A stretch of DNA of 64,000 bases from an uncultured bacterium. Its GTDB lineage: Bacteria > DUMJ01. The notes under the pieces are model-generated. The model worked only from the letters and a program-made list of their open reading frames with translations, was not told where the DNA came from and made no database searches. The position numbers and the translations under genes were made by a program. The DNA lies in NCBI GenBank assembly GCA_937958695.1, contig CALGNK010000010.1, forward strand, positions 1,264 to 65,263, in the 5' to 3' direction. Below are positions 8,732 to 42,016 of this stretch, in pieces (the first letter of the stretch is position 1; the number at the start of each line of letters is the position of its first letter).

Positions 8732-8751
8732 TTTAGAACACCTCCACCTTT

Positions 8752-12883: not shown

Positions 12884-12885
12884 CT

Positions 12886-13752: not shown

Positions 13753-13753
13753 C

Positions 13754-14764
13754 TTATCCTCTCCTTATTCTTGGATCAATTAATGGGTATAAGAATTCTA
13801 TAATGAGATTTGCGGTAAGAACACAAAACATAGTAGTTATCGTAATACCCATCAAGACATTATAATCCATCTCTCTTATTGCCATCATAAAGAGTCTTCC
13901 AATACCAGGATAGTTAAATATCCATTCTATTAGGAAGAATCCGTTTACAATAAAGCCTAAACTTAGAGCAAGGCCAGTAGTTTGAGGTAATAATGTATTC
14001 CTTAATATGTATCTATTTACTAGACGAAAACTTTTTAGTCCTTTAGCCTCTGCTAATTTTATATAGTCTTCTCCTAAGACGCTTATCACTAATGCCCTTT
14101 GAGAGATCATTGTGCCAAAGACATAGACAAAAACTAGAGAAAGAGAGGGTAAGAATGCATGTTTAATAAGACTAATTATAAAGCGCAAACTAAAACTACG
14201 CTGTAACATAGCGGAGTAAGCTCCACCCATAGGGAATAGATTCAACCAGAAGGTAAAGACCATAACTAAAATTATAGCCAATAGATAAGTTGGTATCTGA
14301 GATATCACCAAACCAGTAGTAAAAATTGTAGAACTTATTTTTGATTCTCTGGTCCACCCTATTATAGTTCCTAATATCACCCCCAGAACCCAAGCTATAA
14401 TTACAGATGTCCCTAAAAGTCCTACTGACCAAGGTAATGACTCCAATATAAGTTCTATAGCAGGCTTGGGGAATGCTACAAATGAAGGACCAAAATCTTG
14501 GTAAAAGAGAAGTCTCTTTATATAGGAGATATATCTCTCAAATAAGCCCTTATCAAGTCCAAAGACTTCTTTATATTTTTGTATTACTATTTCAGATGCA
14601 GGGGTTGATAGACCGTACCTTTGCTCTAACATTTGGATATATCTAGTAACTGGATCTCCTGGCACAAGATTAATAAAGAAGAAGAATGCGCTTAGAGAGA
14701 TGACGAAAATTAATGCGTAGAGAAGAATTCTATTTATAAAATAACTAAAAATCGACTTTTTCAT
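13754..14764 (-). CDS. ABC transporter permease (OppB/DppB-like)
   Basis: Polytopic protein with EAA-like region DYIKLAEAKGLKSFRLVNRYILRN and a C-terminal IDPRIR motif. Confidence 0.85.
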   Translation of the reverse strand: MKKSIFSYFINRILLYALIFVISLSAFFFFINLVPGDPVTRYIQMLEQRYGLSTPASEIVIQKYKEVFGLDKGLFERYISYIKRLLFYQDFGPSFVAFPKPAIELILESLPWSVGLLGTSVIIAWVLGVILGTIIGWTRESKISSTIFTTGLVISQIPTYLLAIILVMVFTFWLNLFPMGGAYSAMLQRSFSLRFIISLIKHAFLPSLSLVFVYVFGTMISQRALVISVLGEDYIKLAEAKGLKSFRLVNRYILRNTLLPQTTGLALSLGFIVNGFFLIEWIFNYPGIGRLFMMAIREMDYNVLMGITITTMFCVLTANLIIEFLYPLIDPRIRRG

Positions 14765-14798
14765 CTCTTATCCTTCTCCTAACCTGATAGATTTTAAT

Positions 14799-14839
14799 AG
14801 AGCCACCCAGCTTAACCTATAGCTAAACTGGGTGGCTCT
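14799..14839 (-). terminator. intra-operon stem-loop after the SBP gene (AGAGCCACCCAG ... CTGGGTGGCTCT)
   Basis: A perfect 12-bp inverted repeat in the 82-nt gap between the SBP and permease genes. This is the usual position for partial termination or mRNA stabilisation that raises SBP stoichiometry. Confidence 0.55.
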
Positions 14840-14846
14840 TAATAGA

Positions 14847-16568
14847 CTAACTAGCTGGTTTTAGTTTAAAGAGGATAAAGATAAAGCTGGGCCACCATTG
14901 ATAGGGAACATGATACATGTTACCCTCGGTAGGCCAACCTTTCCAATATTTATCAGAAAAGACTTGGACAAACATCTTTTCTACAAGAGGAACAGAAGGT
15001 AGCTCTCTAAACCACAGATCCAATCCTCTTCTAGCATATAGAGAATATTTTGAACTATCTGGATCCATAGTAGCAAGAGTCTCTGTAATCTTATCTAATT
15101 CTTTAGATTTTAACCTGGACTTCATTCTATCCCCAGTGGTCTGATACTCTCCAAGTGGCTTTGCATGTCTACTATGATACGTATCTAGGAAAGGATATAT
15201 GTCATTTGGAAAAGATACTGCTACATCTAGGACGTCAAAGGCAATATCATAATTTCCTGTATTGACCAGCTCTCCAAACATTCCGGGATCGACTACCTTT
15301 ATTATGCCTTCTATTCCTATCTTTGCCAATTCATCAGAAAGATGTTTTGCATGGACATAACCTAAGTCTGGAGCAGGTCTTGTGAGTAGAACTAAGCTTA
15401 GAGGTTCACCTTTAGGGGTCCTTCTCTTGCCATCAGGCCCTTTCTTGAATCCTAGTCTATCTAAGATTGCTTCAGCCCTCTTTGGATCATACTTCAGCAT
15501 TTCTCCATACTTAGTTTTAATCTCAGGAAATTCCCACTTATCAAGTGCTTTCCAGTCTGGCCAGGGCCACATTGTAGGATAGGACTTCTCAGCCATGGGA
15601 TACGTCTTTGCAAGGAGTTCTCTATTAGCAAGATATTGTATTGCCCATCTGAAGTCTCTCAAACTTGTTGGATATTTAGCGCAGTTGTAAGTGAATCCTT
15701 GAGATACTGCATCCATATAAGGAGCAAGGACCACATTTTCAGTTCTCTTCTGGGCTGCCTTAATCATCTCCCAAGTAAAGATATGGGGTAAAGGTGCATC
15801 TACTCCTCCTCTTATAAAGTCTGCAAGATCAATATCGGGAGGCGGAGCCATTCTACAGATTACATACTTTGGACCTGGAGAAACTCCAAATACTTTCTTT
15901 GCCCAATAATTCTCATCTCTTTCCCAGATAAACAGGTTTAGGTCTTTGTTATAGCTGTGGAACTTATACGGACCTGTTTCAACCGGAGGCCAGTTAGCAT
16001 AATCTCTTGGATCTTTTCCTTCCCACTTATGTTTTGCTACTACTGTAATCCCTCCCCACATCCTCAACTTATGGTGGAATCTGTATTCAGGATTCTTAAA
16101 CTTTATACTGACAGTATAGTCGTCAACTGCAGTTACAGATTTTACATTGGCTACATGCACTGTTCCAAGTAAGTCTGGATTCTTCATAAGGGTTTCTATA
16201 GTAAACACAATATCATGTGCAGTATAAGGAGTTCCATCATTCCATGTTACCCCTTTTCTTACAAACCATCTCAGCTCAAGGCGATCTCTTGAATACTTCC
16301 AACCGGTTATTCTCCAGTAGATATTCTCTCCTGTAGCATAATTTATATACCAGTCCCACTCATTTGCAACCTGATGCCAGCCAGAACCCCATTGAGTTCC
16401 TCTGGGAACAAAAACATTAGCTTTATCAAACACTGTATACTTGGTATCTGTCTCATAGACATAAGCCTGATTTCTAGGTACAGGATACTCTTGAGCCATT
16501 ATTGGCAGAGATATAGTAAGTAATGAAAGAATCAAGCTAAAGATTAAAAATATTCTCAAAATTTTCAT
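14847..16568 (-). CDS. ABC transporter substrate-binding protein, family 5 (cognate SBP of the adjacent translocator)
   Basis: Signal peptide MKILRIFLIFSLILSLLTISLPIMA/QE, 573 aa, family-5 SBP organisation, first gene of the permease/ATPase operon. Confidence 0.8.
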   Translation of the reverse strand: MKILRIFLIFSLILSLLTISLPIMAQEYPVPRNQAYVYETDTKYTVFDKANVFVPRGTQWGSGWHQVANEWDWYINYATGENIYWRITGWKYSRDRLELRWFVRKGVTWNDGTPYTAHDIVFTIETLMKNPDLLGTVHVANVKSVTAVDDYTVSIKFKNPEYRFHHKLRMWGGITVVAKHKWEGKDPRDYANWPPVETGPYKFHSYNKDLNLFIWERDENYWAKKVFGVSPGPKYVICRMAPPPDIDLADFIRGGVDAPLPHIFTWEMIKAAQKRTENVVLAPYMDAVSQGFTYNCAKYPTSLRDFRWAIQYLANRELLAKTYPMAEKSYPTMWPWPDWKALDKWEFPEIKTKYGEMLKYDPKRAEAILDRLGFKKGPDGKRRTPKGEPLSLVLLTRPAPDLGYVHAKHLSDELAKIGIEGIIKVVDPGMFGELVNTGNYDIAFDVLDVAVSFPNDIYPFLDTYHSRHAKPLGEYQTTGDRMKSRLKSKELDKITETLATMDPDSSKYSLYARRGLDLWFRELPSVPLVEKMFVQVFSDKYWKGWPTEGNMYHVPYQWWPSFIFILFKLKPAS

Positions 16569-17410: not shown

Positions 17411-17440
17411 TTGACAGTACAGATAAAAATGATTTATAAT
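17411..17440 (+). promoter_or_regulatory. sigma70 promoter TTGACA-18 nt-TATAAT for the sugar kinase/SBP transcription unit
   Basis: Consensus hexamers at 17411-17416 and 17435-17440. Confidence 0.6.
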
Positions 17441-18514: not shown

Positions 18515-20467
18515 ATGAAAATTTTTAGAAGTTTTATAGTAACTATCTTATGCCTAGGTCTACTAACTAGTCTATTCTCAATGAGTCTAGCTGCAGAAAG
18601 GGTTGTAAAGGGAGAACAGTATAATTTATCAGATTATGAGAAACTTACTGGCAAGAAGATTACCAAGTTTAGTGAAGCTCCAATGCTAGTTGATTTAGTA
18701 AAACAGGGTAAGCTTCCTCCTATAGAAAAGAGACTTCCTGAAGAACCAGTAGTGATAGAGCCATGGGAAGAGATTGGTCAATATGGAGGAACTTGGAGAA
18801 GAGCATGGCTAGGTCTTGCAGATGGTGCAGGTCCATTTAAGATTGCTTATGAACATCTTGTTCGTTGGAATGCAGATGGATCAGATGTGGTACCCAATAT
18901 AGTAAAGAAATTTGAGGTCTCGAAAGATGGAAGAACATTTACGTTCTATCTAAGAGAAGGCTTAAAGTGGTCTGATGGAACACCGTTTACAACAGAAGAT
19001 ATAAGATTCTGGTTTGAAGATATTATACTTAATAAGGATCTTACACCTACATTCCCTAGTTGGTTGACTATTGAGGGTAAACCTTGCTCATTTAGAGTAA
19101 GGGATAAGTATACCTTTACTGTTAGCTTTAGTAAGCCCAATGCTGTGTTCCCAATGCAATTGGCATACTTTGGTGGTTTTGTTGCACCATCTCACTATCT
19201 AAAGCAATTCCATCCTAAATATACTGATCCAAAGAAGTTAGAAGAGATGGCAAAAGAGGCTAAATTCCAATTCTGGTATCAACTATTTGGCTTCAAGAAT
19301 CATTGGCTCCAGAACCCAGAATTACCATCTCTTTGGGCTTGGAAATTGGCAAGTTCTCCTACTGCTACCTTAATGGTCCTTGAGAGGAATCCTTACTATT
19401 GGAAGATAGATCCCGCTGGTAATCAGTTACCTTATATAGATAGGATTACCCATGAGCTTGTTCAGGATGCAGAGATTATTAATATGAAAGCTGTAGCTGG
19501 CGAAATAGATATGCAGATGAGGCATATAAGACTTCAAAACTATACATTACTTATGGAGAATAGAGAGAAAGGTAATTATAGGGTTATAAGATGGACAACT
19601 GCGAGTGGGGCAGACTTTATGCTTATGCCAAATCAAAATGTAAAGGATCCTGTATTGAAGAAACTATTCCAAGATAGAAGATTTAGATTTGCCCTTTCTC
19701 TTGCTATCAATCGTCAAGAAATTAATCAGCTAGTATTTATGGGCTTGGGTAAACCTCGTCAGGCATCTCTTATAAGCGCTTCTCCTTATTATGACCCGCT
19801 TTGGGAGAAGGCTTATGCTGAATATAATCCGAAGAGATCTAATCAATTATTAGATGAAATAGGCCTTACTAAGAGAGATAAGGATGGTTATAGACTTAGA
19901 CCTGATGGTAAAACACTCGCTTTAACTATCGAGTTTGCTATCAGTCCAGTAGCGTCAGATGCCTCTGAGTTAGTAAAGAAATACTGGGAGGCTATAGGTA
20001 TAAAGGTAGATATAAAACAGCATGAAAGAGCTTTAATGTATACAAAGACACTCGCTGGAGAATTTGAGGTTACTACTTGGGGAATGGATAGGGCTTTCCA
20101 ACCTTTAGCTGACCCTCTATATCTAGTACCCTACAGGCAAGAGATTGGAACATGGCATCCACTATATGCGCTCTGGTATATGACTGGTGGAAAATCTGGT
20201 GAAGAGCCTCCAGGTATTATAAGACAGTTACAGAAGGTATGGGATGTAATTAAGGTAACTCCAAGTGCTGAGGAAAGAAAGAGATTAGTATCTCAGATAA
20301 CGAAGATTCATAGAGAGAATATCTGGATGATAGGTACTGTAGGTGAAAGTCCTGCCTTAGTTGTTGTAAAGAATAACTTTAGAAATGTTCCAGAGAAACT
20401 TGTAAGTGATGATATTCTAAGAAGTCCGGGTAATGCTTACCCACAGGTATTCTTCTTTAAGAAGTAG
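18515..20467 (+). CDS. ABC transporter substrate-binding protein, family 5, paralogue B (orphan)
   Basis: Signal peptide ...SMSLA/AE. It shares long near-identical blocks with the SBP at 6752-8731 (LPEEP.V.EP.EEIGQYGGTWRRA; FHPKYTDPKKLEEM.KEAKFQFWYQLF). Confidence 0.85.
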   Translation: MKIFRSFIVTILCLGLLTSLFSMSLAAERVVKGEQYNLSDYEKLTGKKITKFSEAPMLVDLVKQGKLPPIEKRLPEEPVVIEPWEEIGQYGGTWRRAWLGLADGAGPFKIAYEHLVRWNADGSDVVPNIVKKFEVSKDGRTFTFYLREGLKWSDGTPFTTEDIRFWFEDIILNKDLTPTFPSWLTIEGKPCSFRVRDKYTFTVSFSKPNAVFPMQLAYFGGFVAPSHYLKQFHPKYTDPKKLEEMAKEAKFQFWYQLFGFKNHWLQNPELPSLWAWKLASSPTATLMVLERNPYYWKIDPAGNQLPYIDRITHELVQDAEIINMKAVAGEIDMQMRHIRLQNYTLLMENREKGNYRVIRWTTASGADFMLMPNQNVKDPVLKKLFQDRRFRFALSLAINRQEINQLVFMGLGKPRQASLISASPYYDPLWEKAYAEYNPKRSNQLLDEIGLTKRDKDGYRLRPDGKTLALTIEFAISPVASDASELVKKYWEAIGIKVDIKQHERALMYTKTLAGEFEVTTWGMDRAFQPLADPLYLVPYRQEIGTWHPLYALWYMTGGKSGEEPPGIIRQLQKVWDVIKVTPSAEERKRLVSQITKIHRENIWMIGTVGESPALVVVKNNFRNVPEKLVSDDILRSPGNAYPQVFFFKK

Positions 20468-20530: not shown

Positions 20531-22342
20531 ATGTTACAGATGACTGATAAGGAATACTCAAGGTTTATGAAGGCTCTTGATAGGTGGAATGAGAGGTATG
20601 ATCCTGAGGTTTGTATGATCAAAGAACCATTTCATTCTCCTGGATATCATACTACTCTTAAGGGTGGTTGGGTACATCCGACAAGGAGCTCTTTGACTTA
20701 TGCGGTAGCACTTTTAGATAGCGGTATAGAGGAGTATAGACTGAGGGCTATGGATATCCTTAGAAAAGTAATTTCTTTACAGGACCAAAATCCTGACAGC
20801 CCAACTTATGGTATATGGTCTTGGTTTTATGAGGAGCCTTTAGAGAAGATGTCTCCTCCTGATTGGAATTGGGCAAATTTTTGCGGAAAGGAGCTCCTAC
20901 AGGTAGCTCTAGATCATTTTGATAGAATCCCTGAAGAGCTAAGAGAAAAAGTTAAAGAGGCTATTTATCATGCATGTAGGTCTATCATAAGACGTAATGT
21001 AGGTCCATCTTATACTAACATTGCAATTATGGGAGCCTATGTAACTCTTCTTGCGGGAGAGTTATTTGAATGGAAGGATGTCTTTAGCTATGGGAAAGAC
21101 CTTCTTGAAAGAATCCATAAATATACAAGATATCATGGTGCTTTTACTGAGTATAATAGTCCAACATATACTATGGTTGCTATAGAGGATATTTCAAGGA
21201 TACTTTCTCATATAAAGGACAGGGAATGTTTAGAGATTGCGGAATATCTAAATGACGTTGCCTGGAAGTGTGTAGCCTTACATTTCCATCCTCCTACTGG
21301 TCAATGGGCTGGACCGCATAGTAGGTGTTATAACAATATCCAAGGGATTAACCTTTGGTCTAGGATACAATTAGCAACTAGCGGAAAGGTAAAATTCCTA
21401 GAGGAGGATGAATTGTATACTGATATAAATTGGCATAGGATAAAGATAGGATGTCCTGATAATTATATAGATTACTTTATTACCTTAGATAAACCAAGAG
21501 GGATTAGAGAGGTCTTTTATAAAGGAGAGGAATCATTAAGTCCAGAGCTTAGGTCAATAGTAGGTGTTCCGTTTTATCCTGCACTTACAGCAACAACATA
21601 TCTTACCCATTTTTACTGTTTAGGGACATTTTCTAAATCGGACTTTTGGAACCAGAGGAGAGGTTTTATAGGATACCTGGGAGATAAGAATAATCCTATC
21701 TATTTCCAACTAAGATTTTTACATGATGGCTATGATTATTCTTCTGCTCTATTACATACTGTGCAATTAGAAAATAGAGTCTTGGGTGCAATAAATTTTG
21801 CCACAGACTATGGTGATGCACATATAAGTCTTGATAGAGTAAAGGATGCTACTATAGTTGCAAAGGATTTAAGACTTAGACTAGAGTTTGGGGGATATAT
21901 AGCTACTATTAGATTGCCAAACTCATCTAAGCTGGATAATATCCTAATTACCAATATTGATAGTGTGAATCTTGGAATAATGTTTCCAAAAATCTCTTTT
22001 GGAGATTATAAGATAAGTTTAGAAGTTGGTGAGAATGATAAAAATAAGTGGATAGACATTATTTTTTATAGCGGAAAAGAGAAGGCTATATGCTTTAAAG
22101 ACCTAGAGAAGGCTTTTACTGTTTTTGCTTTTTATATTACTGAAGATAATACCGATCTATTAGATAAATTTTCAAATATAAGGATTGATGAACAAGAGGA
22201 AAAGATTTTTTCAAAATGGACTGTAGATGGTAATATTCTAGAGTTGGAGGCTGATCTAAAACCTGGTTCTATAGCGGAGCTTCTTAAGGGTAGTAAGGGT
22301 TTCATAAATGGAATACCCATAGAGAAGGAGGGATTACTTTGA
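20531..22342 (+). CDS. hypothetical cytoplasmic protein, 603 aa (helical N-half, beta-rich C-half); possible novel glycan-active enzyme
   Basis: Strong SD (AGAAGGAGGAAATTTATG) and no signal peptide. Its stop overlaps the start of the next gene (TTGA at 22339-22342). I recognise no family motifs. Confidence 0.6.
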   Translation: MLQMTDKEYSRFMKALDRWNERYDPEVCMIKEPFHSPGYHTTLKGGWVHPTRSSLTYAVALLDSGIEEYRLRAMDILRKVISLQDQNPDSPTYGIWSWFYEEPLEKMSPPDWNWANFCGKELLQVALDHFDRIPEELREKVKEAIYHACRSIIRRNVGPSYTNIAIMGAYVTLLAGELFEWKDVFSYGKDLLERIHKYTRYHGAFTEYNSPTYTMVAIEDISRILSHIKDRECLEIAEYLNDVAWKCVALHFHPPTGQWAGPHSRCYNNIQGINLWSRIQLATSGKVKFLEEDELYTDINWHRIKIGCPDNYIDYFITLDKPRGIREVFYKGEESLSPELRSIVGVPFYPALTATTYLTHFYCLGTFSKSDFWNQRRGFIGYLGDKNNPIYFQLRFLHDGYDYSSALLHTVQLENRVLGAINFATDYGDAHISLDRVKDATIVAKDLRLRLEFGGYIATIRLPNSSKLDNILITNIDSVNLGIMFPKISFGDYKISLEVGENDKNKWIDIIFYSGKEKAICFKDLEKAFTVFAFYITEDNTDLLDKFSNIRIDEQEEKIFSKWTVDGNILELEADLKPGSIAELLKGSKGFINGIPIEKEGLL

Positions 22343-23133: not shown

Positions 23134-23162
23134 TTGTCTATATACTTATTCTGGGCTATACT
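23134..23162 (+). promoter_or_regulatory. candidate sigma70 promoter TTGTCT-17 nt-TATACT for the nine-gene operon
   Basis: Hexamers at 23134-23139 and 23157-23162 with a 17-nt spacer, about 28 nt upstream of the first ORF. Confidence 0.4.
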
Positions 23163-23189
23163 TATTTTAAGAAATAATATTGAAAGGGG

Positions 23190-23885
23190 TTGGAGAGATT
23201 GAACGATAAGAAATTCTATAGGGTTATATCTAGGATGGATGGTTTCCCATATGGGGGAAGATATTTTGATGATATAGAGATAGTATGGTTTTATTCTGAG
23301 AGAAGAGAGTTTCCTCTAGTGAAATATGAAGAGGTGATACAAGACTACAACGAGAAGAAAAAGAGAAATTCTACTGAGAAATTGGAGAGTTATATAGACG
23401 AGTTCTTTGCCCTTCATGAGGCAACAAGATTAAAGAAATTTTTAGATCAGCACTTTAAGGATATCTTTACAGAGATTAGAGAAGTCGATTCTATCCCTAC
23501 CGATCCTGATATTACACCATTAAAGGAGATTCCAGTTGGAGGAGGGGTTGATTTTTATCTTTTATGGAAGGAGGACAAATACCCCCTCTCTTTCAGGGTA
23601 GAGGGAATATTTGATATAAGGCCAGTATGGAGAAGAACCACTCAAAAAAGATGGAAGATAGAGCTTGCTCTTAATGAATTAGACCTATACGAGATTCCTT
23701 CTCTTACCGTAGCAGACAGGGGTATATGTATTATTGATGCTGGAAAGCTTGGTGGGGATTTTTTGGTGGTTTCTCGTGATGAGGAGTTTGAGAGAGTCTT
23801 AAGGGAGAAAGGGTTTGAGCTAGAAGAGATTCCTGGGAAGCTCTACAAGCTTTCCTTTAGGGGTAATGATAAGAAAGAAGCTTAA
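23190..23885 (+). CDS. hypothetical cytoplasmic protein, 231 aa (first gene of envelope operon)
   Basis: ORF (TTG start as given; the start is uncertain). No TM segment or signal peptide. The 3' end overlaps the next gene by 20 nt. Confidence 0.5.
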   Translation: MERLNDKKFYRVISRMDGFPYGGRYFDDIEIVWFYSERREFPLVKYEEVIQDYNEKKKRNSTEKLESYIDEFFALHEATRLKKFLDQHFKDIFTEIREVDSIPTDPDITPLKEIPVGGGVDFYLLWKEDKYPLSFRVEGIFDIRPVWRRTTQKRWKIELALNELDLYEIPSLTVADRGICIIDAGKLGGDFLVVSRDEEFERVLREKGFELEEIPGKLYKLSFRGNDKKEA

Positions 23886-25692
23886 TATACTTCTACTTAC
23901 ACTGTTATTAATCCTACTACCTGAGTTTGCTAAGGCGGATTATTTTCTTACTGGAAATTTTTTCTCTTCCGAGACTGATATAAAGAAACTTCCTCTAGAG
24001 GTATCCTCTATAGTCTTTGGGATTAATGATAGGCTATATCTTTTAGATAGGAGGGAGGGGAAGATACAGATATATTCGCCAGAAGGAGTTCTTGAAAGAG
24101 AAATTTACTCTAAAGCTGAGGTTATCACTTTAGACCCATGGGGCTATATCTATGCGATCTCTAAGGGAAGATTTGTAGACATACTTGATCCTTTAGGAAA
24201 TCTAGTCAAGAGTATTACTCTTGAATCTCGAGATCCTATTTATGATTTTATCTCTTATTTTGGGTTTGTCTCTGTAGATGAGAGGGGTTACATATATATT
24301 GTTAATACTAGTTCTGGTAAAGTTTCTATATACTCTCCTTCTGGAGTTTATGTTGGAGACCTTATAAAGAGTGGATATGGATCTTCAGACCTTACTATGG
24401 TGAATGCAGTAGCTATAGACTCTAGAGGGAACATCTATGTAGCTGGAAGCCTGCCTAGATCAGCTGCTAGTAGGTTTGAGCCAAACTATATTGTAGCAAA
24501 GAGAATGAACTACCAGGGGTATACAAATATGACCTTTGGACCAATTATAAATGCATTTATAGGTGGAATAGTTGTGGACCAACTTGGCAATCTATATATT
24601 TTGGATACGTCTTCTTCTTATATCTATAAGTTCGATAAGAGAGGAGCTCTTGTTACTAGATTTTTTGTCGGTAGAGGCGCTACTTGTATTGCTATACGTA
24701 GCGATGGCTATATAGCCATAGGATACGGTGGAGAAGTAAAACTTTTTCATCCTTCTAGGTTGATGAAGATTATAGATAAGGCTAATGAAGCATTGCTAGA
24801 TGGTAATTATGACCTTTCTGTAAAGTATTGGAACGAGGCATTAAGATTGAATAATTATATGAAATTTATCCATTCAGGTCTTGGAGAGACCTATTTATAT
24901 ATGAAAGATTATAGAAATGCTCTTAGGGAGTTTAAATTGGCAGAGGATAAGTTTAGATATTCTGGAACTGTTATCCTTTATAGGAGAGAACTCTTCTATA
25001 GATATATAATCCTTTGGGGAATATTATTTCTAGTCATAGCAAATATCGTTATTCTTTGGGGTAAAAGGTTCTCATTTATATTTAATAATATAATAGGTCG
25101 TATGATTTATGCCCCTGTAAAGACCCTAGTAGAGGTTAGAGAGAAGCCTATATACTGGGGCTTTATCCTACTAATTGCTCTTGCCCTTATAGATGCACTG
25201 AACAGAAGATATACCAATTATATCTTTCAGCCTAATTTAGAGGCTATAGATTATCTGTTCTTTCGTAGATTACTTATGTTTTCAGGTCTGTGGTTTGTAA
25301 GTGGGACTGTTTTTTATAGCGTTGGGGAGATATTTGATGGAATGGGAACTTGGAAGCAGTGTATGCTTACTGCGATCTTCTGTATAGTGCCGTATATACT
25401 ATTCTCATTTCCACTTTCTCTTATTAGTAACCTTCTTACATTTCAAGAGAAGATTTACTACGACTATGCTAGACAGGGTTTAATACTTTGGTGCGGAATC
25501 CTCTTTTTCGTAAATGTCTATACCACACAACAGTTATCTTCGACTAAGAATCTTTTAATATTTTTATTAACTGGGGTGGGATTGGCTTTTGCTATTTCTA
25601 TAATTTTATTCCTACAAGGTGTTAATAGAGAATTATGGTCCTTTATAAAAGATATCTATCTTGAGGCATGGTATAGGTTGGTAGGATACTGA
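23866..25692 (+). CDS. exported NHL-like beta-propeller + TPR + C-terminal Yip1-like 5-TM domain fusion protein
   Basis: Signal peptide MIRKKLNILLLTLLLILLPEFAKA. About six repeats of the type D..G.IY(V/I).D....I.I(Y/F)(S/D)P.G (e.g. VDERGYIYIVNTSSGKVSIYSPSGV, VDQLGNLYILDTSSSYIYKFDKRG). TPR-like helices (YWNEALRLNNYM..GETYLYMKDYRNALREFKLAE). A C-terminal polytopic region has the Yip1-type entry motif (APVKTLVEVREKPIYWGFILLIAL). Confidence 0.65.
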   Translation: MIRKKLNILLLTLLLILLPEFAKADYFLTGNFFSSETDIKKLPLEVSSIVFGINDRLYLLDRREGKIQIYSPEGVLEREIYSKAEVITLDPWGYIYAISKGRFVDILDPLGNLVKSITLESRDPIYDFISYFGFVSVDERGYIYIVNTSSGKVSIYSPSGVYVGDLIKSGYGSSDLTMVNAVAIDSRGNIYVAGSLPRSAASRFEPNYIVAKRMNYQGYTNMTFGPIINAFIGGIVVDQLGNLYILDTSSSYIYKFDKRGALVTRFFVGRGATCIAIRSDGYIAIGYGGEVKLFHPSRLMKIIDKANEALLDGNYDLSVKYWNEALRLNNYMKFIHSGLGETYLYMKDYRNALREFKLAEDKFRYSGTVILYRRELFYRYIILWGILFLVIANIVILWGKRFSFIFNNIIGRMIYAPVKTLVEVREKPIYWGFILLIALALIDALNRRYTNYIFQPNLEAIDYLFFRRLLMFSGLWFVSGTVFYSVGEIFDGMGTWKQCMLTAIFCIVPYILFSFPLSLISNLLTFQEKIYYDYARQGLILWCGILFFVNVYTTQQLSSTKNLLIFLLTGVGLAFAISIILFLQGVNRELWSFIKDIYLEAWYRLVGY

Positions 25693-27692
25693 TGCGAAAG
25701 AGTATCTTATTTGTGTTTATTCTTCTATTAATAGCCTCTAAAGTTTATGCCAAGCTAGATATTACCTATGAAGTGAGTAAAGACCTTCTTATTGTTAGGA
25801 ATGATAGTTATACTATGACCAGTTCTCCTCTAGACTGGAGGTCTGTAAATGATTATTGGGATTCTAAGATAAGGTCAATGTTTATTGTTGAATATTGGGA
25901 TAAGGAATTGGGTAATTCTAGACTTTTATTCTCTTACGATGCAAAAAGGACTTCTGTTTCTAATAAAGAATCAATAGATATAAATTACAAGTTTTCATCT
26001 ATAAACCTTAGTTTTACCGCTAAGTTATATAACAAAGGAGAATATATTGAGGTTACGATACCTTATAAGACTTTTAAGGAGGACCTTTCTTTTCCAGTAA
26101 TTAGTGTTACCTTTTTACCATACCTAAACTCTGGTAGGGTTGGAGAAAGTGGATACCTAGTTATACCTGATGGTTGTGGGACTATCGTCAAATTTACAAA
26201 ATTCTTTGGGGTAACCACACTTGAAAAACAGGTCTACGGTGATTTAACCCCATCTAGTTATGATATAAACCAGATACCTATCACTCTACCTGTATTTGGT
26301 TGTATAAAGGGTAATTTAGGTTTTGCTGGTATAATAACAGAAGGGGATGCCTTTAGCAGTTTAGTAATGGATATGGCACCTGGTAATGGATATTATTCTA
26401 TAGGAGCTAAGTTTTATTTTAGAAGAATATTTGAAGATATATACCGTAAGAAGAGGATAACTCCTAGAAGAGATAATAGGGATAGGACTATTCGCTTCTA
26501 TGTACTCAAAGATGAATCTGCCAACTATGTTGGAGTTGGTAAGAGCTACAGGGAATTCCTCTTAAAAGAAAGAGGTGCCAAGACTCTAAAAGAAAAAATA
26601 CCTACCTATAGTTATCTAGATCCAAATATTATCGATATAGGGATATTTATGGGTGTTAAGAAAGGCTTTCAACTTTTTGATCCGGTGATTAGTTTAACAT
26701 CCTTTAGAGAGATAAGTTTGATACTTGATAGATTAAGGGACCTTGGTATAAGGGCAAACATCATACTCGCTGGTTGGGAGAAATCTGGATTTGAGGGTGA
26801 GAATCCTACCACCTTTCCTCCGTTTGATGGTTCTAGAGGCCTTAAGTTGATATTAGAAAGGGCCAAGAATTTGGGACACTTTATAAGTCTTTCGGTTAAT
26901 TTTTTTGATATCTATCAGAATTCTAGAGATTTTTATAGAAGGTTAACATTGAAGAGTCCTGTAAAATTACCATTAGAGCAGAATACGTATAGGAGAGGAT
27001 ATATTATATGTCCACAAGTAGCATTGACTAAATTTCAGAGGTTCTACAGTGAGGCAAAAAAGATCGGAGTAGCTGGGATTGAACTTAGACGTTTAGGTAG
27101 AGGTCTTATAGAATGTTTTGATGATGACCATCCCGTAGATAGATTTGATTGTGCAGGAATCTATACAAAAATGATAAGTTCAGCTGGTATAGTTGAGGGA
27201 GGCTGTGGTTATGGTGTATATTCGGTAAATAATTTTGTCTCTGTACCATCTAAGAGCTCAGGTTTTTTTGGTGGAGATTCTGTCCCTTTGTGGCAGATAG
27301 TGTTACATGGTATAGTAAGATACTCCTTTGAACCAATAAATCTTAGGAGGGACTTTGATTACGAATTCCTCAAGACTCTAGAGTACGGGGCATTACCAAC
27401 CGCTATACTGACTTATAGATCTCCGATATTGATAAGGGATACCTTTTACAAAGACCTCTTTAGCTCTAGATTCTTGGATTGGCAGAACGATCTAAAGCGT
27501 GAGTATGAACTTCTTAATAGAATACTTGGATATCTCCAGTATCATTTTATTACCGACCACAGAGAATTATCTAGGTATGTATATCAAACGACTTATAGTG
27601 ATGGCACTAGGGTTATAGTGAATTATTCAAACAAAGAATTTAATGGTATAAAGCCGCTTGGGTATAGAATAATTAAAGGAGATAATCAATAG
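25692..27692 (+). CDS. secreted 666-aa protein, DUF5696-like (putative glycan-processing TIM-barrel; unverified)
   Basis: Signal peptide MRKSILFVFILLLIASKVYA. Start ATG overlaps the previous stop (TGATG). The DUF5696 assignment comes from my recollection of size, architecture and genomic company (Yip1 + CUT1 permeases), not from a search. Confidence 0.4.
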   Translation: MRKSILFVFILLLIASKVYAKLDITYEVSKDLLIVRNDSYTMTSSPLDWRSVNDYWDSKIRSMFIVEYWDKELGNSRLLFSYDAKRTSVSNKESIDINYKFSSINLSFTAKLYNKGEYIEVTIPYKTFKEDLSFPVISVTFLPYLNSGRVGESGYLVIPDGCGTIVKFTKFFGVTTLEKQVYGDLTPSSYDINQIPITLPVFGCIKGNLGFAGIITEGDAFSSLVMDMAPGNGYYSIGAKFYFRRIFEDIYRKKRITPRRDNRDRTIRFYVLKDESANYVGVGKSYREFLLKERGAKTLKEKIPTYSYLDPNIIDIGIFMGVKKGFQLFDPVISLTSFREISLILDRLRDLGIRANIILAGWEKSGFEGENPTTFPPFDGSRGLKLILERAKNLGHFISLSVNFFDIYQNSRDFYRRLTLKSPVKLPLEQNTYRRGYIICPQVALTKFQRFYSEAKKIGVAGIELRRLGRGLIECFDDDHPVDRFDCAGIYTKMISSAGIVEGGCGYGVYSVNNFVSVPSKSSGFFGGDSVPLWQIVLHGIVRYSFEPINLRRDFDYEFLKTLEYGALPTAILTYRSPILIRDTFYKDLFSSRFLDWQNDLKREYELLNRILGYLQYHFITDHRELSRYVYQTTYSDGTRVIVNYSNKEFNGIKPLGYRIIKGDNQ

Positions 27693-28393
27693 TGAGGTGG
27701 CTTATTTTACTTGTCTCTCCATCTGAAGCTTGGGAATATGTTAAGAATACCAACTGGCTCATTATTCCCATTTTGGTGGGAATCTTATCAGCACTCTGTA
27801 GTTTTTACATTACTATAGATCCCAATGTTATGTATCTTAAGGCTGAGACGATTGTAAGATTATCTCGTAATAGCTTTTTCTCACTACCAGAAGGGGAAGG
27901 GATTATAAAACTATCTATCACTCTAGGGTTTATTATGCTACCATTATGGTATATCTTTAGAACTATAGTTTCTAGTATGATTGCAAAAAGGATACTTAAG
28001 TATATAGAGTATAAGAAACTTTTAATTATCTTTTCTTTATCTCTTTTACCAATTATTCCTTTAAGATTCATTATTCTGTACTTTATTAAGGTTAAAGGCT
28101 TAAAAGACCTAGTTGACCTTAGAGACCTTTATATAACACTGAGCCCTGTTCTATTCTATGCATTAAATAGAGATATACTTAAGAACGATATGCTCTATAT
28201 GTTTCTTAGAGAGATAAGCTTGCAGAATATCTGGACTATGGTTATATTTGCAGGTCTTTCTTCTAAAGAAGGTATAGATACTAGAAGAGGTATATTGGCT
28301 TTTCTTATCGTTCTAGCAGTTATGAGAATTATAGAGATACTTTGGGAGAATTATAGCTATAATATAATCTGGTTTCTTCTTGTTGGAGGTTGA
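27692..28393 (+). CDS. Yip1-family integral membrane protein (5 TM)
   Basis: N-terminal motif LVSPSEAWEYVKNTNWLIIPILVGIL, typical of bacterial YIP1 proteins, and five hydrophobic segments. GTG start overlaps the previous TAG by 1 nt. Confidence 0.6.
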   Translation: MRWLILLVSPSEAWEYVKNTNWLIIPILVGILSALCSFYITIDPNVMYLKAETIVRLSRNSFFSLPEGEGIIKLSITLGFIMLPLWYIFRTIVSSMIAKRILKYIEYKKLLIIFSLSLLPIIPLRFIILYFIKVKGLKDLVDLRDLYITLSPVLFYALNRDILKNDMLYMFLREISLQNIWTMVIFAGLSSKEGIDTRRGILAFLIVLAVMRIIEILWENYSYNIIWFLLVGG

Positions 28394-28395
28394 GT

Positions 28396-29760
28396 ATGAG
28401 AAAGAAGTTAGGTATTACTGCGCTTATTGTAAGTATTTTATGGGTTATGTATCTTGGTTTTATATATAATAGAACTTATTTCGAACATTACCCTAAGGTT
28501 ACTGTTACCGTTGCCGAGAGAAAACCTTTTATTCAGGATATATCTACAATTGGTTATATAGAGCCTGCTGTTAGGTCTACTATAAGGAGTACTGTATCAG
28601 GAAAGGTCTTAGAAATAATGGTTAATGTTGGAGACTATGTAAGGAAAGGGGATCCTCTATTTCGTATAGAATCCCCAGATTTAGAACTTCAGATAGAGCA
28701 GGCTAAGTTAAATATAGAAAAGCTCAAGATAGAAGAAGAAAAGCTAAAAAGTGAAGTTTATGATATATCTCAGCATGAGGTAAATCTAAAAAGAGAGGAG
28801 GAAAATCTTAATAGAGCTCAAAAGGAGTTAGAAAAGGCAGAGTTTCTCTTTAAGAATGGGATTATTACCCTCTCAGAATACAGTAACTATAAAAATCTAT
28901 ATACCCAGGCAAAGCTTACCTATGAACTGGCAGAGAAGAATTATAGAATTAGTAAAAGACAGTATGAAATACAAGAAAAACTTAAGACCGATAACCTTTT
29001 GGTTTTGCACAAGAGTATAAAAAATGCCAAGGCACAATTAAAAAATTTGGAAGATCAGAGGTTGGTTAAAGCTAGTATAGAAGGTAGGATAGTTTCTATC
29101 TTTGTAAAGAAGGGAGAATATGTTACAGTTGGAACCCCTATTGTCTATATGGCTGACGAGAGAAAATTAATGGTATCCTCTGTAGTAGATCCAAAATATA
29201 TAGATAGGGTCAAAATTGGTCAGGAGATAAGATTTAAGGTTGACCCACTCTCTACCAAGGAGTATAAGGGAGAAGTAGATTCTATATCAGAGGGAACAGA
29301 GGAATTGATGGGTAAGACTGGTATAAAGGTTACTGGAAGAATAAAGGATAAGATACCGGGTATCAAGGTTAATATGCCTGTGTATTCAAGGATTTTAGTA
29401 CGGAGTAAGGAACTTAGTGTAGTTGTTCCTGTAGCAAGTATATATCAGGAGACCCCTAAAGGTGAGGAAAATCCCCTGTATTATTTGAGTCCACCCAGCC
29501 CAAAAGATGTTGAATATTACGTTTTTGTGCTTGAAAGAACACCTATAACTACTGATGACAGAGAACTTAGAAGATTGATAAGAGATAACGTTCAAGTTGT
29601 GAGAAAGAGAAAAGTTGAGGTAGGCGGGGTTAGTGAAGGCGAAGCGGAGATTATTAGCGGTTTGAATCAATTTGAAAAAGTAGTTACATATAGTAGCAGA
29701 TCGCTTAACGATTATGATAGGGTTATAGTTATAGAGAGAGAAAAATGGGCAAAGGATTAG
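28396..29760 (+). CDS. HlyD-family periplasmic adaptor (membrane fusion protein)
   Basis: ORF track 28390..29760. ATG at 28396 lies 6 nt after GGAGG. N-terminal TM anchor, lipoyl-like motif (GKVLEIMVNVGDYVRKGDPLFRIESPDL), a ~150-aa coiled-coil hairpin, then a beta-barrel domain. Confidence 0.85.
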   Translation: MRKKLGITALIVSILWVMYLGFIYNRTYFEHYPKVTVTVAERKPFIQDISTIGYIEPAVRSTIRSTVSGKVLEIMVNVGDYVRKGDPLFRIESPDLELQIEQAKLNIEKLKIEEEKLKSEVYDISQHEVNLKREEENLNRAQKELEKAEFLFKNGIITLSEYSNYKNLYTQAKLTYELAEKNYRISKRQYEIQEKLKTDNLLVLHKSIKNAKAQLKNLEDQRLVKASIEGRIVSIFVKKGEYVTVGTPIVYMADERKLMVSSVVDPKYIDRVKIGQEIRFKVDPLSTKEYKGEVDSISEGTEELMGKTGIKVTGRIKDKIPGIKVNMPVYSRILVRSKELSVVVPVASIYQETPKGEENPLYYLSPPSPKDVEYYVFVLERTPITTDDRELRRLIRDNVQVVRKRKVEVGGVSEGEAEIISGLNQFEKVVTYSSRSLNDYDRVIVIEREKWAKD

Positions 29761-30803
29761 AGGGAGTAAAGATAGGGATAGCTGTTATGCTTGTTTCTCT
29801 TGTATTAGGTTCACTAGAGTCTATTAGATTTGGCTTAGGGTATAATATCTTTACCTATGGGATGGATATATTTGCAGTTTCTCCATATCTAACAGAGGAG
29901 ATGAAATTAGAACCTCTTACCTGGGAAGATGCTAAGGCTATAGCAGACATACCTGGTGTGAAGTCAGTAGATAGTGTAAAAAAGGGTACCGCTAAGGTTT
30001 TATTAAGAGCCGAAGAGACAAATATGAATATCACCCTAATTACTCCAAATTTTGTAGACATTATTGGGAGAAGGCTAATAGATGGAAGAAATTTCACAAG
30101 TACTGATTTTTCTAGGTCTTATAAGGTTGTTCTTCTTCCAGAGAACACTAAGGACATACTCTTTAGTAAAGATGTAAATCCTCTTGGGAGCGAGATATAT
30201 ATAAACAGGGAGAGATTTATTGTAGTTGGTATCCTGGGTCAGGCATTTATGGAGAAGATAATAAATAGGTTTAAGATACTGAGGGATTATCTGCCTATGA
30301 TATCACAATTGGCAGAACTTATATATCCAAAAAGAGAGCTTTTAATACCTTTATACTACGATCCTTATGATAGATTAGATGCTTTAATAATAACTGTTTA
30401 TCCAAAGTATTCTTGGGGAACCTTTAAGGCAGTCTTAAAGGATGAGATAGTAAGGACATTAAGATTTAGACATATAGGGGAAAGTGATTATGAGGTATTC
30501 AATCTACACGAAAGGCTTTTAGCATTTAAGGTTTATCTATTGATCTTTCTCTCAGTAATGTTTGTTATATCTGTAATACTTATAGCATCTGCTTTTCTAA
30601 GAACTAGAGGTATTCTTTTCAGAGATAAGATACTTCTATTTTTAATTTGGATAACTGTAGGAGAACTTTCAGGATTATTGTTATCTAGAGTTGTTACAAT
30701 TAGGTTAGATATACCTCCATCACCGGTTTGGTGTTTCTTAGTAGGATTTTTCATACCATTCTTTATTTGGTGTAGATATGAGATTAAGAAGATTAAACTA
30801 TAG
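29745..30803 (+). CDS. MacB/FtsX-type permease with periplasmic MacB_PCD-like domain and short, degenerate FtsX C-terminal domain
   Basis: TM1, then a ~230-aa extracytoplasmic domain with MacB-like strings (LTWEDAKAIADIPGVKSV; PLGSEIYINRERFIVVGIL), then three C-terminal TMs. The usual (R/K)xxEIGxxKAxGA loop is only vaguely present (LRTRGILFRDK). No adjacent ATPase. Confidence 0.6.
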   Translation: MGKGLEGVKIGIAVMLVSLVLGSLESIRFGLGYNIFTYGMDIFAVSPYLTEEMKLEPLTWEDAKAIADIPGVKSVDSVKKGTAKVLLRAEETNMNITLITPNFVDIIGRRLIDGRNFTSTDFSRSYKVVLLPENTKDILFSKDVNPLGSEIYINRERFIVVGILGQAFMEKIINRFKILRDYLPMISQLAELIYPKRELLIPLYYDPYDRLDALIITVYPKYSWGTFKAVLKDEIVRTLRFRHIGESDYEVFNLHERLLAFKVYLLIFLSVMFVISVILIASAFLRTRGILFRDKILLFLIWITVGELSGLLLSRVVTIRLDIPPSPVWCFLVGFFIPFFIWCRYEIKKIKL

Positions 30804-31662
30804 ACAAAAGAATATACTGATGAGTTATATAGCCATATCTCCATGGCTTATAGGGTTTGCTGTCTTTTTTGTATTCCCTCTATTATTCTCCATCGTCTTA
30901 AGTTTTCTAAAATGGAGCTTTAATGGAAGCACATTTGTATGGCTTGATAACTATAAGGAAGCACTTTTTAACGATAGGGATTTCTGGTATAGCCTAGGTG
31001 TAACATTAGGTTATGGTGTTATAAGTATTCCATTTACAATACTATTCTCGCTTATACTTGCCCTTCTCATAAATCAAAAGGTAAAAGGGATAGGTTTTTT
31101 TAGAATGGTGTATTTCTTACCAGTAGTAGCTGCTTCAGATGTTGTCGTAGCCAAGATAGGTCCTGAAATATTTAGTAAAATGGTCAGTGTAAATGTAACA
31201 TTGGAGACATTTGGCATTCAGGTCAATCCAGATGTCCAAAACTTTATAGGGCTCTTTTCTACCCTAATTACTCTAGGACTATGGCGTGTAGGTATTCAGA
31301 TGCTTATATTTTTAGCTGGTCTTCAGAGTATAGACCCTCAGATATATGAGGCGGTAGAATTAGATGGTGCCAGCTGGTGGAAGAGCCTCTGGGCAATAAC
31401 TATTCCTCTTTTAGGTCCCTTTATAGTTATTAATGTCGTCTTTACTGTAATTGAGTCTTTTACTAATGTCTTTACAATAGCAAGGGTACTAGCAGGGGGA
31501 AGAAGTGTAACTCCTTTCTTTATGGACTATGTATATAGACTCAGTTTTGAACAGTATAGGCTTGGATATGGATCTGCGGTAAGCTGGATATTTCTTATTA
31601 TTGTTATCTCATTAGTGCTATTAGCTTACTATTACTCTCAGAAGTATCTAGTTGAGAGGTAA
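30778..31662 (+). CDS. carbohydrate ABC transporter permease (CUT1, MalF/UgpA-like)
   Basis: Six TM segments and EAA loop YEAVELDGASWWKSLWAITIPLL. Confidence 0.85.
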   Translation: MRLRRLNYRQKNILMSYIAISPWLIGFAVFFVFPLLFSIVLSFLKWSFNGSTFVWLDNYKEALFNDRDFWYSLGVTLGYGVISIPFTILFSLILALLINQKVKGIGFFRMVYFLPVVAASDVVVAKIGPEIFSKMVSVNVTLETFGIQVNPDVQNFIGLFSTLITLGLWRVGIQMLIFLAGLQSIDPQIYEAVELDGASWWKSLWAITIPLLGPFIVINVVFTVIESFTNVFTIARVLAGGRSVTPFFMDYVYRLSFEQYRLGYGSAVSWIFLIIVISLVLLAYYYSQKYLVER

Positions 31663-31668
31663 GAGAAG

Positions 31669-32571
31669 ATGAAGTACAAGACTAACATCCTCTATAAGAT
31701 TAAAAGGATAATACCAAAGCTTATAATCTACTTTTTACTTATTGATGGGGCTTTTATATTCCTCTATCCCATTGGGAGGACGGTAGTCATATCCCTTATG
31801 ACTATAGAGGACTATATGGATCCTTCGGTGAATTGGATCCCAAATAGGTTAAACTTTAGAAATTATATAGATGTATTAAAACCTATGGAATTCTTTACCG
31901 CCTTTTCTAATACTGTAAAACTGACAGTGTTCTGCATCTTAGGACAGGTCTTATCCTCTGCTCTTGTTGGATATGGCCTTGCTAGAGGTAAGATTCCTGG
32001 AAAAGAGGTTATTATGATGATAATACTTGCTACCCTTGTTGTTCCTCCTCAGACTCTCCTCATACCTTACTACATCCTATATCACAGATTAAACCTCTTA
32101 GATTCACTTAATGTATTTATTATTCCTTCTTTCTTTGGCTTTGGAATATATGCACCTCTATGCATATTTGTCTTCAGACAAGTATTTAATACACTTCCGA
32201 CTGAACTAGAAGATGCAGCCATAATAGATGGTGCAGATTTCTTTAGGTGTTTCTGGTATGTCTATCTTCCACTATCTAGGTCTGCCTTTGTAACGGTAGG
32301 ACTCTTCACCTTTGTCTGGTATTGGAACGAGTATGCCAGGAGCATCATCTTCTTTAATAATATAAGGACTATTCCTATAGCTCTATCTCTACTATTCTCT
32401 GCCGATCCTGCATATGTAGGTACAGGCTTTGGTGGTATGAATATTAGTGTTGTGACCTATCCTATGATGATGTCTGCGGTTATGCTGACTATACTTCCCT
32501 GTCTAATTTTATACCTCTTTACACAGAAATACTATTTAACTGCTATAGAACAAGTTGGGATAAAGGGATAA
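31669..32571 (+). CDS. carbohydrate ABC transporter permease (CUT1, MalG/UgpE-like)
   Basis: Six TM segments and EAA loop LEDAAIIDGADFFRCFWYVYLPL. Confidence 0.85.
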   Translation: MKYKTNILYKIKRIIPKLIIYFLLIDGAFIFLYPIGRTVVISLMTIEDYMDPSVNWIPNRLNFRNYIDVLKPMEFFTAFSNTVKLTVFCILGQVLSSALVGYGLARGKIPGKEVIMMIILATLVVPPQTLLIPYYILYHRLNLLDSLNVFIIPSFFGFGIYAPLCIFVFRQVFNTLPTELEDAAIIDGADFFRCFWYVYLPLSRSAFVTVGLFTFVWYWNEYARSIIFFNNIRTIPIALSLLFSADPAYVGTGFGGMNISVVTYPMMMSAVMLTILPCLILYLFTQKYYLTAIEQVGIKG

Positions 32572-32587
32572 AACTATGCTTATCCTA

Positions 32588-32616
32588 TTGACATTTAGGT
32601 CAATTTGACCCATAAT
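32588..32616 (+). promoter_or_regulatory. sigma70 promoter TTGACA-17 nt-CATAAT upstream of speH
   Basis: TTGACA at 32588-32593 and CATAAT at 32611-32616 with a 17-nt spacer. Confidence 0.55.
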
Positions 32617-41883: not shown

Positions 41884-41914
41884 TTTTATAACAGTTGAAT
41901 ATAGAATTTTAAAT

Positions 41915-42003
41915 AGAGCTTCCTAAGAAGGTAGGTGCCGAAAGGCTTAATATCCTACTGAGGAAGGATAACCCTTCCAAAGGATTAGGAAGGGTTATTT
42001 TAT
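41915..42003 (+). promoter_or_regulatory. ribosomal protein L10 leader (nested helices plus intrinsic terminator/attenuator)
   Basis: The 133-nt rplA-rplJ gap folds as nested helices: P1 CTTCCT(41919-24)/AGGAAG(41961-66), P2 GTAGG(41931-35)/CCTAC(41954-58), P3 GCC-GAAA-GGC(41937-46). An 11-bp hairpin follows, ATAACCCTTCC(41968-78)/GGAAGGGTTAT(41988-98), then TTTAT. The location matches the known L10(L12)4-binding leader. Confidence 0.6.
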
Positions 42004-42016
42004 AGAAGGAGGAATT

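Follow-up and report, generated by a model that had tools for sequence, protein, structure and literature searches.

An operon joining a Yip1–HlyD–MacB-like trio to a DUF5696 protein and a CUT1 permease pair, with neither an ATPase nor a solute-binding protein

How could an operon work that encodes two sugar-importer-type permeases, an efflux-type adaptor and a MacB-fold membrane protein, and neither an ATPase nor a solute-binding protein (SBP)? The question is raised by a locus of an uncultured bacterium, contained in a 64,000-nucleotide stretch of contig CALGNK010000010.1 (positions 1,264 to 65,263, forward strand) that we refer to as the window. At positions 23190–32571, the open reading frame (ORF) listing and the junction sequences reveal eight plus-strand ORFs, O1 to O8, each joined to the next by an overlap or a gap of at most 6 nt. 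An earlier note, made from the sequence alone, announced nine genes in its title, and the listing gives eight; the junction coordinates of that note were all reproduced. Pfam and NCBIfam searches bear out nearly all of its domain calls, the exceptions being O4, which in the window has no Pfam Yip1 match of its own, and O6, which has no Pfam FtsX match.

Our preferred answer, to which we assign a probability of roughly 0.45, is that O7 and O8 form the centre of an apparatus that captures glycans and takes them up. These two proteins would form a divergent CUT1 permease pair, i.e., a type I ATP-binding cassette (ABC) importer, powered by an unlinked ATPase of the MalK/MsmX type encoded elsewhere. 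Outside the membrane, the substrate would be bound and/or trimmed by O2, which its own Yip1 domain tethers, and by the secreted O3. O4–O6, a putatively YknWXZ-derived trio, take the place that a giant SBP and an additional permease pair occupy in the Clostridial version of the cluster; they would give the importer a passive, ATPase-independent scaffold or chamber outside the cytoplasm, and the Yip1 proteins would probably act as assembly subunits.

The EAA motif is intact in both permeases: Y190, E191, A192, G197 and P210 of O7 are invariant across phyla, and A183, D187, G188 and P201 of O8 are invariant from this lineage to Clostridia, which argues that O7 and O8 still dock a nucleotide-binding domain (NBD). 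They are the most conserved genes of the core (76–96% identity among lineage orthologues; 78–96% for O7), and in the Clostridia-type layout they most resemble the permease pair that lies downstream of DUF5696. Pairs of BPD_transp_1 proteins with EAA motifs are the transmembrane domains of type I importers. Whereas the earlier note left it open whether the system imports glycans, exports them or remodels the surface, the type I importer permeases together with the sugar-catabolic neighbourhoods favour import.

No ATPase is encoded in the operon, as judged by a six-frame scan for Walker A and ABC-signature motifs. The sole ABC ATPases of the window are an OppD/F-like pair (10949–12883, minus strand), and 36 loci examined out to about 10 kb from the DUF5696 gene contain none. 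An ATPase gene is likewise missing from two standard CUT1 operons of this lineage. Since multitask ATPases encoded elsewhere, such as MsmX, are established partners of CUT1 importers (PMC7658222) and the EAA motifs are kept, the lack of an ATPase, which the earlier note pointed out, is ordinary for the CUT1 half, and a shared, unlinked MsmX-type ATPase is expected for O7/O8. O7 and O8 resemble CUT1 importers with a shared ATPase (MalFGK2-E; the MsmX-dependent importers of Bacillus subtilis) in having two BPD_transp_1 permeases with EAA motifs, but differ from them in having no cognate SBP in the operon or the window and in being accompanied by extra membrane and extracytoplasmic subunits.

For the genes that precede the permeases, a precedent exists. 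The earlier note knew of no characterised system with this make-up, but had overlooked YknWXYZ of Bacillus, which consists of the Yip1 protein YknW, YknX as membrane-fusion protein (MFP), the ATPase YknY and the FtsX-type permease YknZ, and in which YknW modulates assembly of the complex; O4-O5-O6 share its gene order (PMC4887032). Specifically, the trio reproduces the W-X-Z order of these four-component type VII ABC systems of B. subtilis and B. amyloliquefaciens, together with an N-terminally anchored MFP and a permease with an extracytoplasmic core domain. It differs from YknWXYZ in that there is no YknY ATPase gene, in that O6 has lost the coupling-helix motif between transmembrane helices TM2 and TM3, and in that the trio is embedded between a protein with a fold like that of glycoside hydrolase (GH) family 129 and a CUT1 pair; furthermore, YknWXYZ protects against the SDP peptide toxin, whereas O4–O6 have no such link. 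A literature search for YIP1 family proteins with ABC permeases returned no relevant description.

O4 is the least conserved gene of the core (42–76% identity). Four of seven O4 orthologues match Pfam Yip1 (best E 3.5e-9), and an hhalign comparison of the O4 family with the Yip1 domain of O2 gives E 0.19, which is not significant, so that our tentative assignment of O4 to Yip1 comes from the Pfam matches of its orthologues. O5 scores 125 bits against TIGR01730 (RND_mfp; cut-off 94.9), also matches HlyD_3, HlyD_D23 and Biotin_lipoyl_2, has MacA and EmrA as PDB matches, and carries one transmembrane segment, at its N-terminus (residues 7–25). As in MacAB-TolC, the operon pairs a long-hairpin HlyD-family adaptor with a MacB-fold membrane protein; unlike in that system, O6 has neither a fused nor a separate NBD, nor the coupling helix. 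The window contains no TolC-type or OEP-family gene, the sole OEP match being a weak coiled-coil match inside O5. A DevBCA-type glycolipid exporter was considered and rejected (DevB, 55.7 bits against a cut-off of 129; no ATPase).

O6 appears to be a MacB-fold protein that has lost its connection to an ATPase. It has four hydrophobic segments, matches MacB_PCD with 59.8 bits, and aligns by hhalign to 20 canonical stand-alone MacB/YknZ-type permeases with a probability of 99.75% and an E value of 2.4e-27 over a region spanning TM1–TM3. In the same alignment, 25 residues between TM2 and TM3 are missing from O6, among them the family-wide motif ERTREIGxxKAxGA..DI..QFL.EA, which in MacB-type permeases forms the major coupling helix on which the ATPase docks (PMC5985334). 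The periplasmic domain is strongly conserved and matches those of PDB MacB and the extracellular domain of YknZ (5f9q, E 9e-7), while the cytoplasmic loop and tail are short and variable and TM2–4 are poorly conserved. Consistent with this assignment, Foldseek relates a low-confidence model of O6 to MacB, Spr0694/5, YknZ and LolCDE. The most conserved segment of the protein is an invariant, lineage-specific insertion of 29 residues (170–198, EKIINRFKILRDYLPMISQLAELIYPKRE) that has no counterpart in the canonical permeases and is a candidate new interaction surface. On sequence grounds, then, the MacB-fold protein O6 has probably given up coupling to an ATPase, and it is this loss of the docking helix that leads us to propose a passive scaffold. 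That O4–O6 work as an independent ATP-driven pump is unlikely.

The loss of NBD coupling in a protein that keeps a strongly conserved periplasmic domain can also be read as a sign that O6 receives its energy indirectly. By packing against O7/O8, its transmembrane helices would pass the ATP-driven movements of the CUT1 transporter to its periplasmic domain and to O5, giving a hybrid type I/type VII machine that might, for example, thread or release long glycan chains or control O3. The strict contiguity of O4–O8, the high identity of the permeases and the lack of an SBP are in keeping with this idea. However, it is purely inferential, it has no known precedent, and the poor conservation of TM2–4 of O6 speaks against a precise interface between transmembrane helices; we regard it as improbable. 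A related proposal takes O4–O8 as one hybrid machine, in which the NBD-less O6 and an HlyD-type adaptor, as a hexamer, would cap the O7/O8 importer with its unlinked MsmX-like ATPase, and Yip1 proteins would assemble the whole. The MFP/periplasmic chamber, the GH129-like protein and the NHL propeller would replace the SBP and feed long glycans into the importer. We hold this to be a tentative and rather unlikely proposal.

The uptake apparatus that we prefer gains its second precedent from Clostridia. All eight Clostridia-type loci inspected, from gut, rumen and digester contigs, have the same layout: a giant SBP_bac_1 protein, two permeases, an NHL/TPR-Yip1 protein, a DUF5696 protein (23–30% identical to O3) and two further permeases. 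The giant SBP comprises 925–1078 aa and the NHL/TPR-Yip1 protein about 700 aa, the latter being sometimes split; a third lineage (L031, L032 and L036) has the same layout. The NHL/TPR-Yip1 protein, the DUF5696 protein and the downstream divergent CUT1 pair are orthologous to those of the window and follow the same order, and both clusters are without an ATPase. The two versions differ at two points. The giant SBP and the first permease pair, located upstream in the Clostridia-type cluster, are absent from the window and from all its lineage orthologues, and the window's lineage has Yip1, HlyD and MacB-like genes between DUF5696 and the permeases. As no HlyD or MacB gene occurs in the Clostridia-type or third-lineage loci inspected, the O4–O6 trio is a lineage-specific insertion, which answers the question in the earlier note whether HlyD and the FtsX-like gene are an add-on: they are, and are restricted to the window's lineage.

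The Clostridia-type loci are surrounded by glycoside hydrolase genes (GH31, GH78, GH27/36, GH35, GH3, GH20, GH123 and GH13) and by AraC, LacI, GntR and two-component regulators, and in the third lineage, too, the module has glycoside hydrolase and sugar-regulator genes around it. The giant-SBP/DUF5696 cluster is common in glycan loci of gut and rumen Clostridia and appears to be entirely uncharacterised. As a separate observation, the giant SBP_bac_1 proteins (L012 18131–20983; L014 3281–6058; L015 3201–6119; L017 1789–5025) carry an N-terminal extension of about 500 aa that belongs to no clear family. Some of the extensions give a faint Golvesin_C match, and nothing in the window is similar to them; we therefore rejected the idea that O5/O6 or O1 derives from this extension.

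O2 and O3 are the proposed extracytoplasmic partners of the importer. O2 exceeds the cut-off for Pfam Yip1 (PF04893; 33.3 bits against 28.6), also matches SBBP, NHL and TPR, is related to NHL domains in the PDB (E 4e-12) and has its transmembrane segments at residues 381–581; hydropathy analysis is consistent with the topologies given here for the O1–O8 proteins. O3 matches Pfam DUF5696 (PF18952) with 353.6 bits (cut-off 25.6) over profile positions 7–601 of 612. The DUF5696 family profile in turn matches the GH129 enzyme NagBb in the PDB (E 5e-13), the similarity extending over the barrel. In addition, Foldseek ranks ZgGH129 (E 6e-24, TM-score 0.65) and NagBb (E 7e-23) first for an AlphaFold2 (AF2) model of O3, with full-length matches at TM-scores of 0.57–0.65, followed by GH101, GH36, GH97 and GH31 proteins. 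O3 thus shares a full-length fold and barrel profile similarity with GH129, a family that includes the α-N-acetylgalactosaminidase NagBb and the 3,6-anhydro-D-galactosidase ZgGH129; it differs in that an Arg aligns with the nucleophile Asp and that DUF5696 has an invariant motif of its own, GY[LI]x[IV]PDG[CS]G, along with conserved W362, H539 and E564. DUF5696 is named in no paper of the library that was searched.

Several points weigh against the uptake apparatus. First, type I importers normally require an SBP, and a search of the operon and of window ORFs of 150 aa or longer finds no SBP_bac_1; the Walker A/signature scan and the window ORF searches thus agree with the earlier note that the operon has neither ATPase nor SBP. 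The SBPs of the window are all SBP_bac_5 proteins that go with the Opp-type system. Conventional models leave a single feature unexplained, namely the missing SBP. Second, we infer, rather than observe, that transport runs inwards, that the parts associate physically and that O2 and O3 play the roles given above. Third, the AF2 models have only moderate (O3, pLDDT 64, below 50 around the nucleophile region) or low (O6, pLDDT 52.7) confidence, and we base no residue-level claim about an active site or a loop on the models alone. Fourth, the catalytic nucleophile of NagBb, which we take to be Asp435 at the end of β-4 (YLDVF), pairs in the hidden Markov model alignment with an Arg of O3 (IELRRLG), and the corresponding column holds Asp in at most 16 of 45 DUF5696 family members, so the nucleophile is not conserved and an enzymatic role of O3 is uncertain. 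An alternative register would place LYSDF at this position, in the low-confidence part of the model, and the 45-sequence alignment is too diverse for a pattern scan. From its sequence, O3 may hydrolyse, bind or otherwise process glycans. Fifth, opposite-strand DNA breaks the O3|O4 junction in two relatives, L026 and L028, so O1–O3 and O4–O8 can be separate transcription units, which allows the two parts to function independently there.

One candidate for the missing SBP, the SBP_bac_5 gene at 18515–20467, was considered and found unlikely. Its product is of the Opp/Dpp family and a partner of the divergent Opp-type transporter (10949–16568), a terminator-like hairpin comes after the gene, and several of the orthologous contexts lack it altogether. 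It is one of three Opp/Dpp-type SBP_bac_5 genes of the window (6752–8770, minus; 14847–16568, minus; 18515–20467, plus), which has one Opp-type permease/ATPase set (10949–14764). Neighbours of the three are the GH2 gene, the Gfo/Idh/MocA oxidoreductase genes and the KDG-kinase-like gene; this arrangement suggests that a single Opp-type transporter is served by several oligosaccharide-binding proteins.

The lack of an SBP and of a conserved GH129 nucleophile, which leaves room for non-hydrolytic roles of DUF5696, would both fit a machine that works outwards, assembling, exporting or remodelling a cell-surface glycan or exopolysaccharide. In such a machine, DUF5696 would act as a transglycosylase or trimmer, and the HlyD and MacB-like proteins, which belong to classically outward-acting families (PMC5985334), would form the conduit. 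However, no glycosyltransferase, Wzx/Wzy or polysaccharide-synthesis gene is found among the annotated genes of the loci, and the related loci of Clostridia encode catabolic glycoside hydrolases and giant SBPs, along with LacI-, AraC- and ROK-type sugar regulators. Moreover, a BPD_transp_1 pair with EAA motifs marks an importer. We consider export distinctly improbable.

The gene-neighbourhood analysis bears on whether the parts of the uptake apparatus belong together at all. By tblastn, O2–O8 are collinear and 57–100% identical in about 20 contigs of the window's lineage, and a scan of a genome collection reached seven loci; the exact protein set occurs only in metagenome-assembled genomes and metagenome contigs. 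The block is found in two unrelated contexts. In one, it is preceded by a xylose-isomerase-like TIM-barrel gene and followed by speD; in the other, that of a clade whose DUF5696 orthologue is 58% identical, it is preceded by a RuBisCO-like gene and followed by dciA-recF-dnaN-dnaA. The block is thus co-conserved irrespective of its flanks and travels as one unit, in support of the earlier note. O4–O8 are contiguous in every contig inspected, including those with a broken O3|O4 junction. In L026, the interrupting gene (12236–15214, minus strand) encodes a protein of 992 aa that combines a clostripain C11 peptidase domain with six Big_7 repeats, and in L028 (12089–21490) an opposite-strand standard CUT1 operon and a ROK-family gene are inserted, the operon encoding an SBP, two permeases and two unknown proteins (778 and 703 aa), and no ATPase.

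These interruptions by unrelated genes are an argument for three independent systems sharing one operon: a CUT1 importer (O7/O8) with an orphan SBP and a shared ATPase elsewhere, a YknWXYZ-like efflux system (O4–O6) pumping a peptide, toxin or drug with its ATPase elsewhere, and a pair of surface enzymes (O2/O3). ATPases and SBPs can be unlinked, and the sub-modules have precedents of their own in YknWXYZ and the Clostridial DUF5696 module. Against this stand the O6 protein itself, which has neither the coupling helix nor a conserved cytoplasmic surface for an NBD, and the distribution of its relatives. Full-length relatives of O6 form a single 50%-identity cluster among 1.84 billion representatives, the remaining matches spanning only TM1 and the first half of the periplasmic domain; no full-length relative was found outside the operon, which argues that O6 is not a generic pump recruited by chance. 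Furthermore, O4–O8 are never split in the contigs inspected, their genes overlap, and in Clostridia the pair orthologous to O7/O8 always directly follows DUF5696. We view independent systems as possible, though on the whole unlikely, and retain the uptake apparatus as the preferred reading.

The coordinates of the operon and its flanking promoter-like sites are collected in Table 1.

Table 1. Genes O1–O8 and adjacent promoter-like sites (positions in the window; TM, transmembrane).
Feature	Position	Strand	Remarks
Weak sigma-70-like promoter match, 9/12	23134–23162	+	Within the 77-nt gap 5′ of O1; not above shuffle background
O1, 231-aa soluble protein, function unassigned	23190–23885	+	Lineage-restricted, outside the conserved core
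O2, signal peptide, NHL/SBBP six-blade-type β-propeller, TPR and C-terminal multi-pass Yip1	23866–25692	+	
O3, secreted DUF5696 protein, GH129-like fold (N-terminal β-sandwich and TIM barrel)	25692–27692	+	
O4, 233-aa polytopic membrane protein, divergent Yip1 member, YknW-like position	27692–28393	+	At least 4 TM segments
O5, membrane-anchored HlyD/MFP adaptor, long coiled-coil hairpin (YknX/MacA-like)	28390–29760	+	Likelier start ATG 28396
O6, 352-aa MacB/FtsX-superfamily (type VII ABC) membrane protein	29745–30803	+	TM1, periplasmic core domain and TM2–4 kept; major coupling helix lost
O7, MalF/UgpA-type CUT1 permease	30778–31662	+	BPD_transp_1 39.4 bits; UgpA-like
O8, MalG/UgpE-type CUT1 permease	31669–32571	+	BPD_transp_1 38 bits; UgpE-like 70 bits
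Strong promoter-like site, 11/12	32588–32616	+	Between O8 and speD; 3′ boundary of the unit

The junctions are tight throughout. O1 and O2 overlap by 20 nt, O2/O3 and O3/O4 are joined by 1-nt overlaps (TGATG at 25692 and TAGTG at 27692, respectively), O5 and O6 overlap by 16 nt, O6 and O7 overlap by 26 nt, and 6 nt separate O7 from O8. O4 and O5 overlap by 4 nt if O5 starts at 28390 and are separated by 2 nt if it starts at the ATG, which matches the start of the called gene in the relative L001. RBS-like (ribosome-binding-site-like) purine-rich runs precede most of the starts. From this chaining the earlier note suggested one transcript; the two relatives with an interrupted O3|O4 junction show that a single transcript is not obligatory. 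The operon interior contains no promoter-like site above shuffle background. The 5′ end of the transcript is uncertain, since the site before O1 is weak and another, at 17411–17440, far upstream, matches perfectly (12/12).

O1 stands apart from the other genes. It has no match in Pfam, NCBIfam or the PDB and no predicted transmembrane segment, and its occurrence is limited to relatives with a DUF5696 orthologue of at least 69% identity, the 58% clade lacking it; although it was listed as a component of the operon, it is confined to this closer clade and is not part of the conserved system. In the 58% clade, its place is taken by a RuBisCO large-subunit-like gene (L002 6748–8172; L004 6737–8167), which shares the strand of the O2 orthologue and lies 18 nt upstream of it, and a PRK-family (phosphoribulokinase/uridine kinase) gene lies nearby in L002 and L003.

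The 5′ flank of the operon is sugar-catabolic, with genes for a KDG-kinase-like PfkB protein, the orphan SBP_bac_5, a sugar epimerase-like TIM barrel, Gfo/Idh/MocA oxidoreductases, a GH2 protein and the Opp-type transporter, whereas the 3′ flank holds housekeeping genes unrelated to the operon: speD (AdoMet decarboxylase), speB (agmatinase), nusB, tlyA, nadK and recN. Upstream, at 20531–22342 (plus strand), lies a gene for a 603-aa soluble protein that has no Pfam or NCBIfam match and a weak PDB match, over residues 496–564, to the HP0242 knot domain. It is also found next to the orphan SBP_bac_5 in L008 and L026, and may be an uncharacterised sugar-processing enzyme. Further downstream, a ribosomal protein L10 leader (Rfam RF00557, 55.2 bits; 41904–42009, plus strand) precedes rplJ in a nusG, rplA, rplJ region, which identifies the window as ordinary chromosomal DNA. 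One relative, L009, is encoded on contig DUMJ01000084, whose WGS prefix is identical to the placeholder name of a GTDB phylum, DUMJ01 ('Ca. Macifiota'). That phylum comprises three genomes with 37.7–39.8% GC from waste digesters and oilfields (PMC11382960), and the window, with a GC content of about 37%, is probably a member of it.

All parts of the operon come from known families, and its architecture is accounted for by two precedents, the Clostridial module and YknWXYZ. What is undescribed is their combination: type I permeases together with a GH129-like protein, two Yip1 proteins, an MFP and a type VII subunit devoid of an NBD. Within a candidate phylum, this combination is strongly conserved. 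To our knowledge, YknW is the only bacterial Yip1 protein to have been studied; if the parts cooperate, bacterial Yip1 proteins would be general assembly subunits of ABC-type machines. Were O4–O8 one hybrid machine, it would be an SBP-independent, adaptor-assisted ABC importer and contain the first inward-acting membrane-fusion protein. DUF5696 is a possible new glycosidase-like family, and the sister cluster points to an overlooked class of Gram-positive polysaccharide-utilisation machinery. For the lineage of the window, cooperation of the parts would mean a new design of ABC sugar importer, one that has no classical binding protein and has borrowed efflux hardware, an MFP and a motorless MacB-fold protein.

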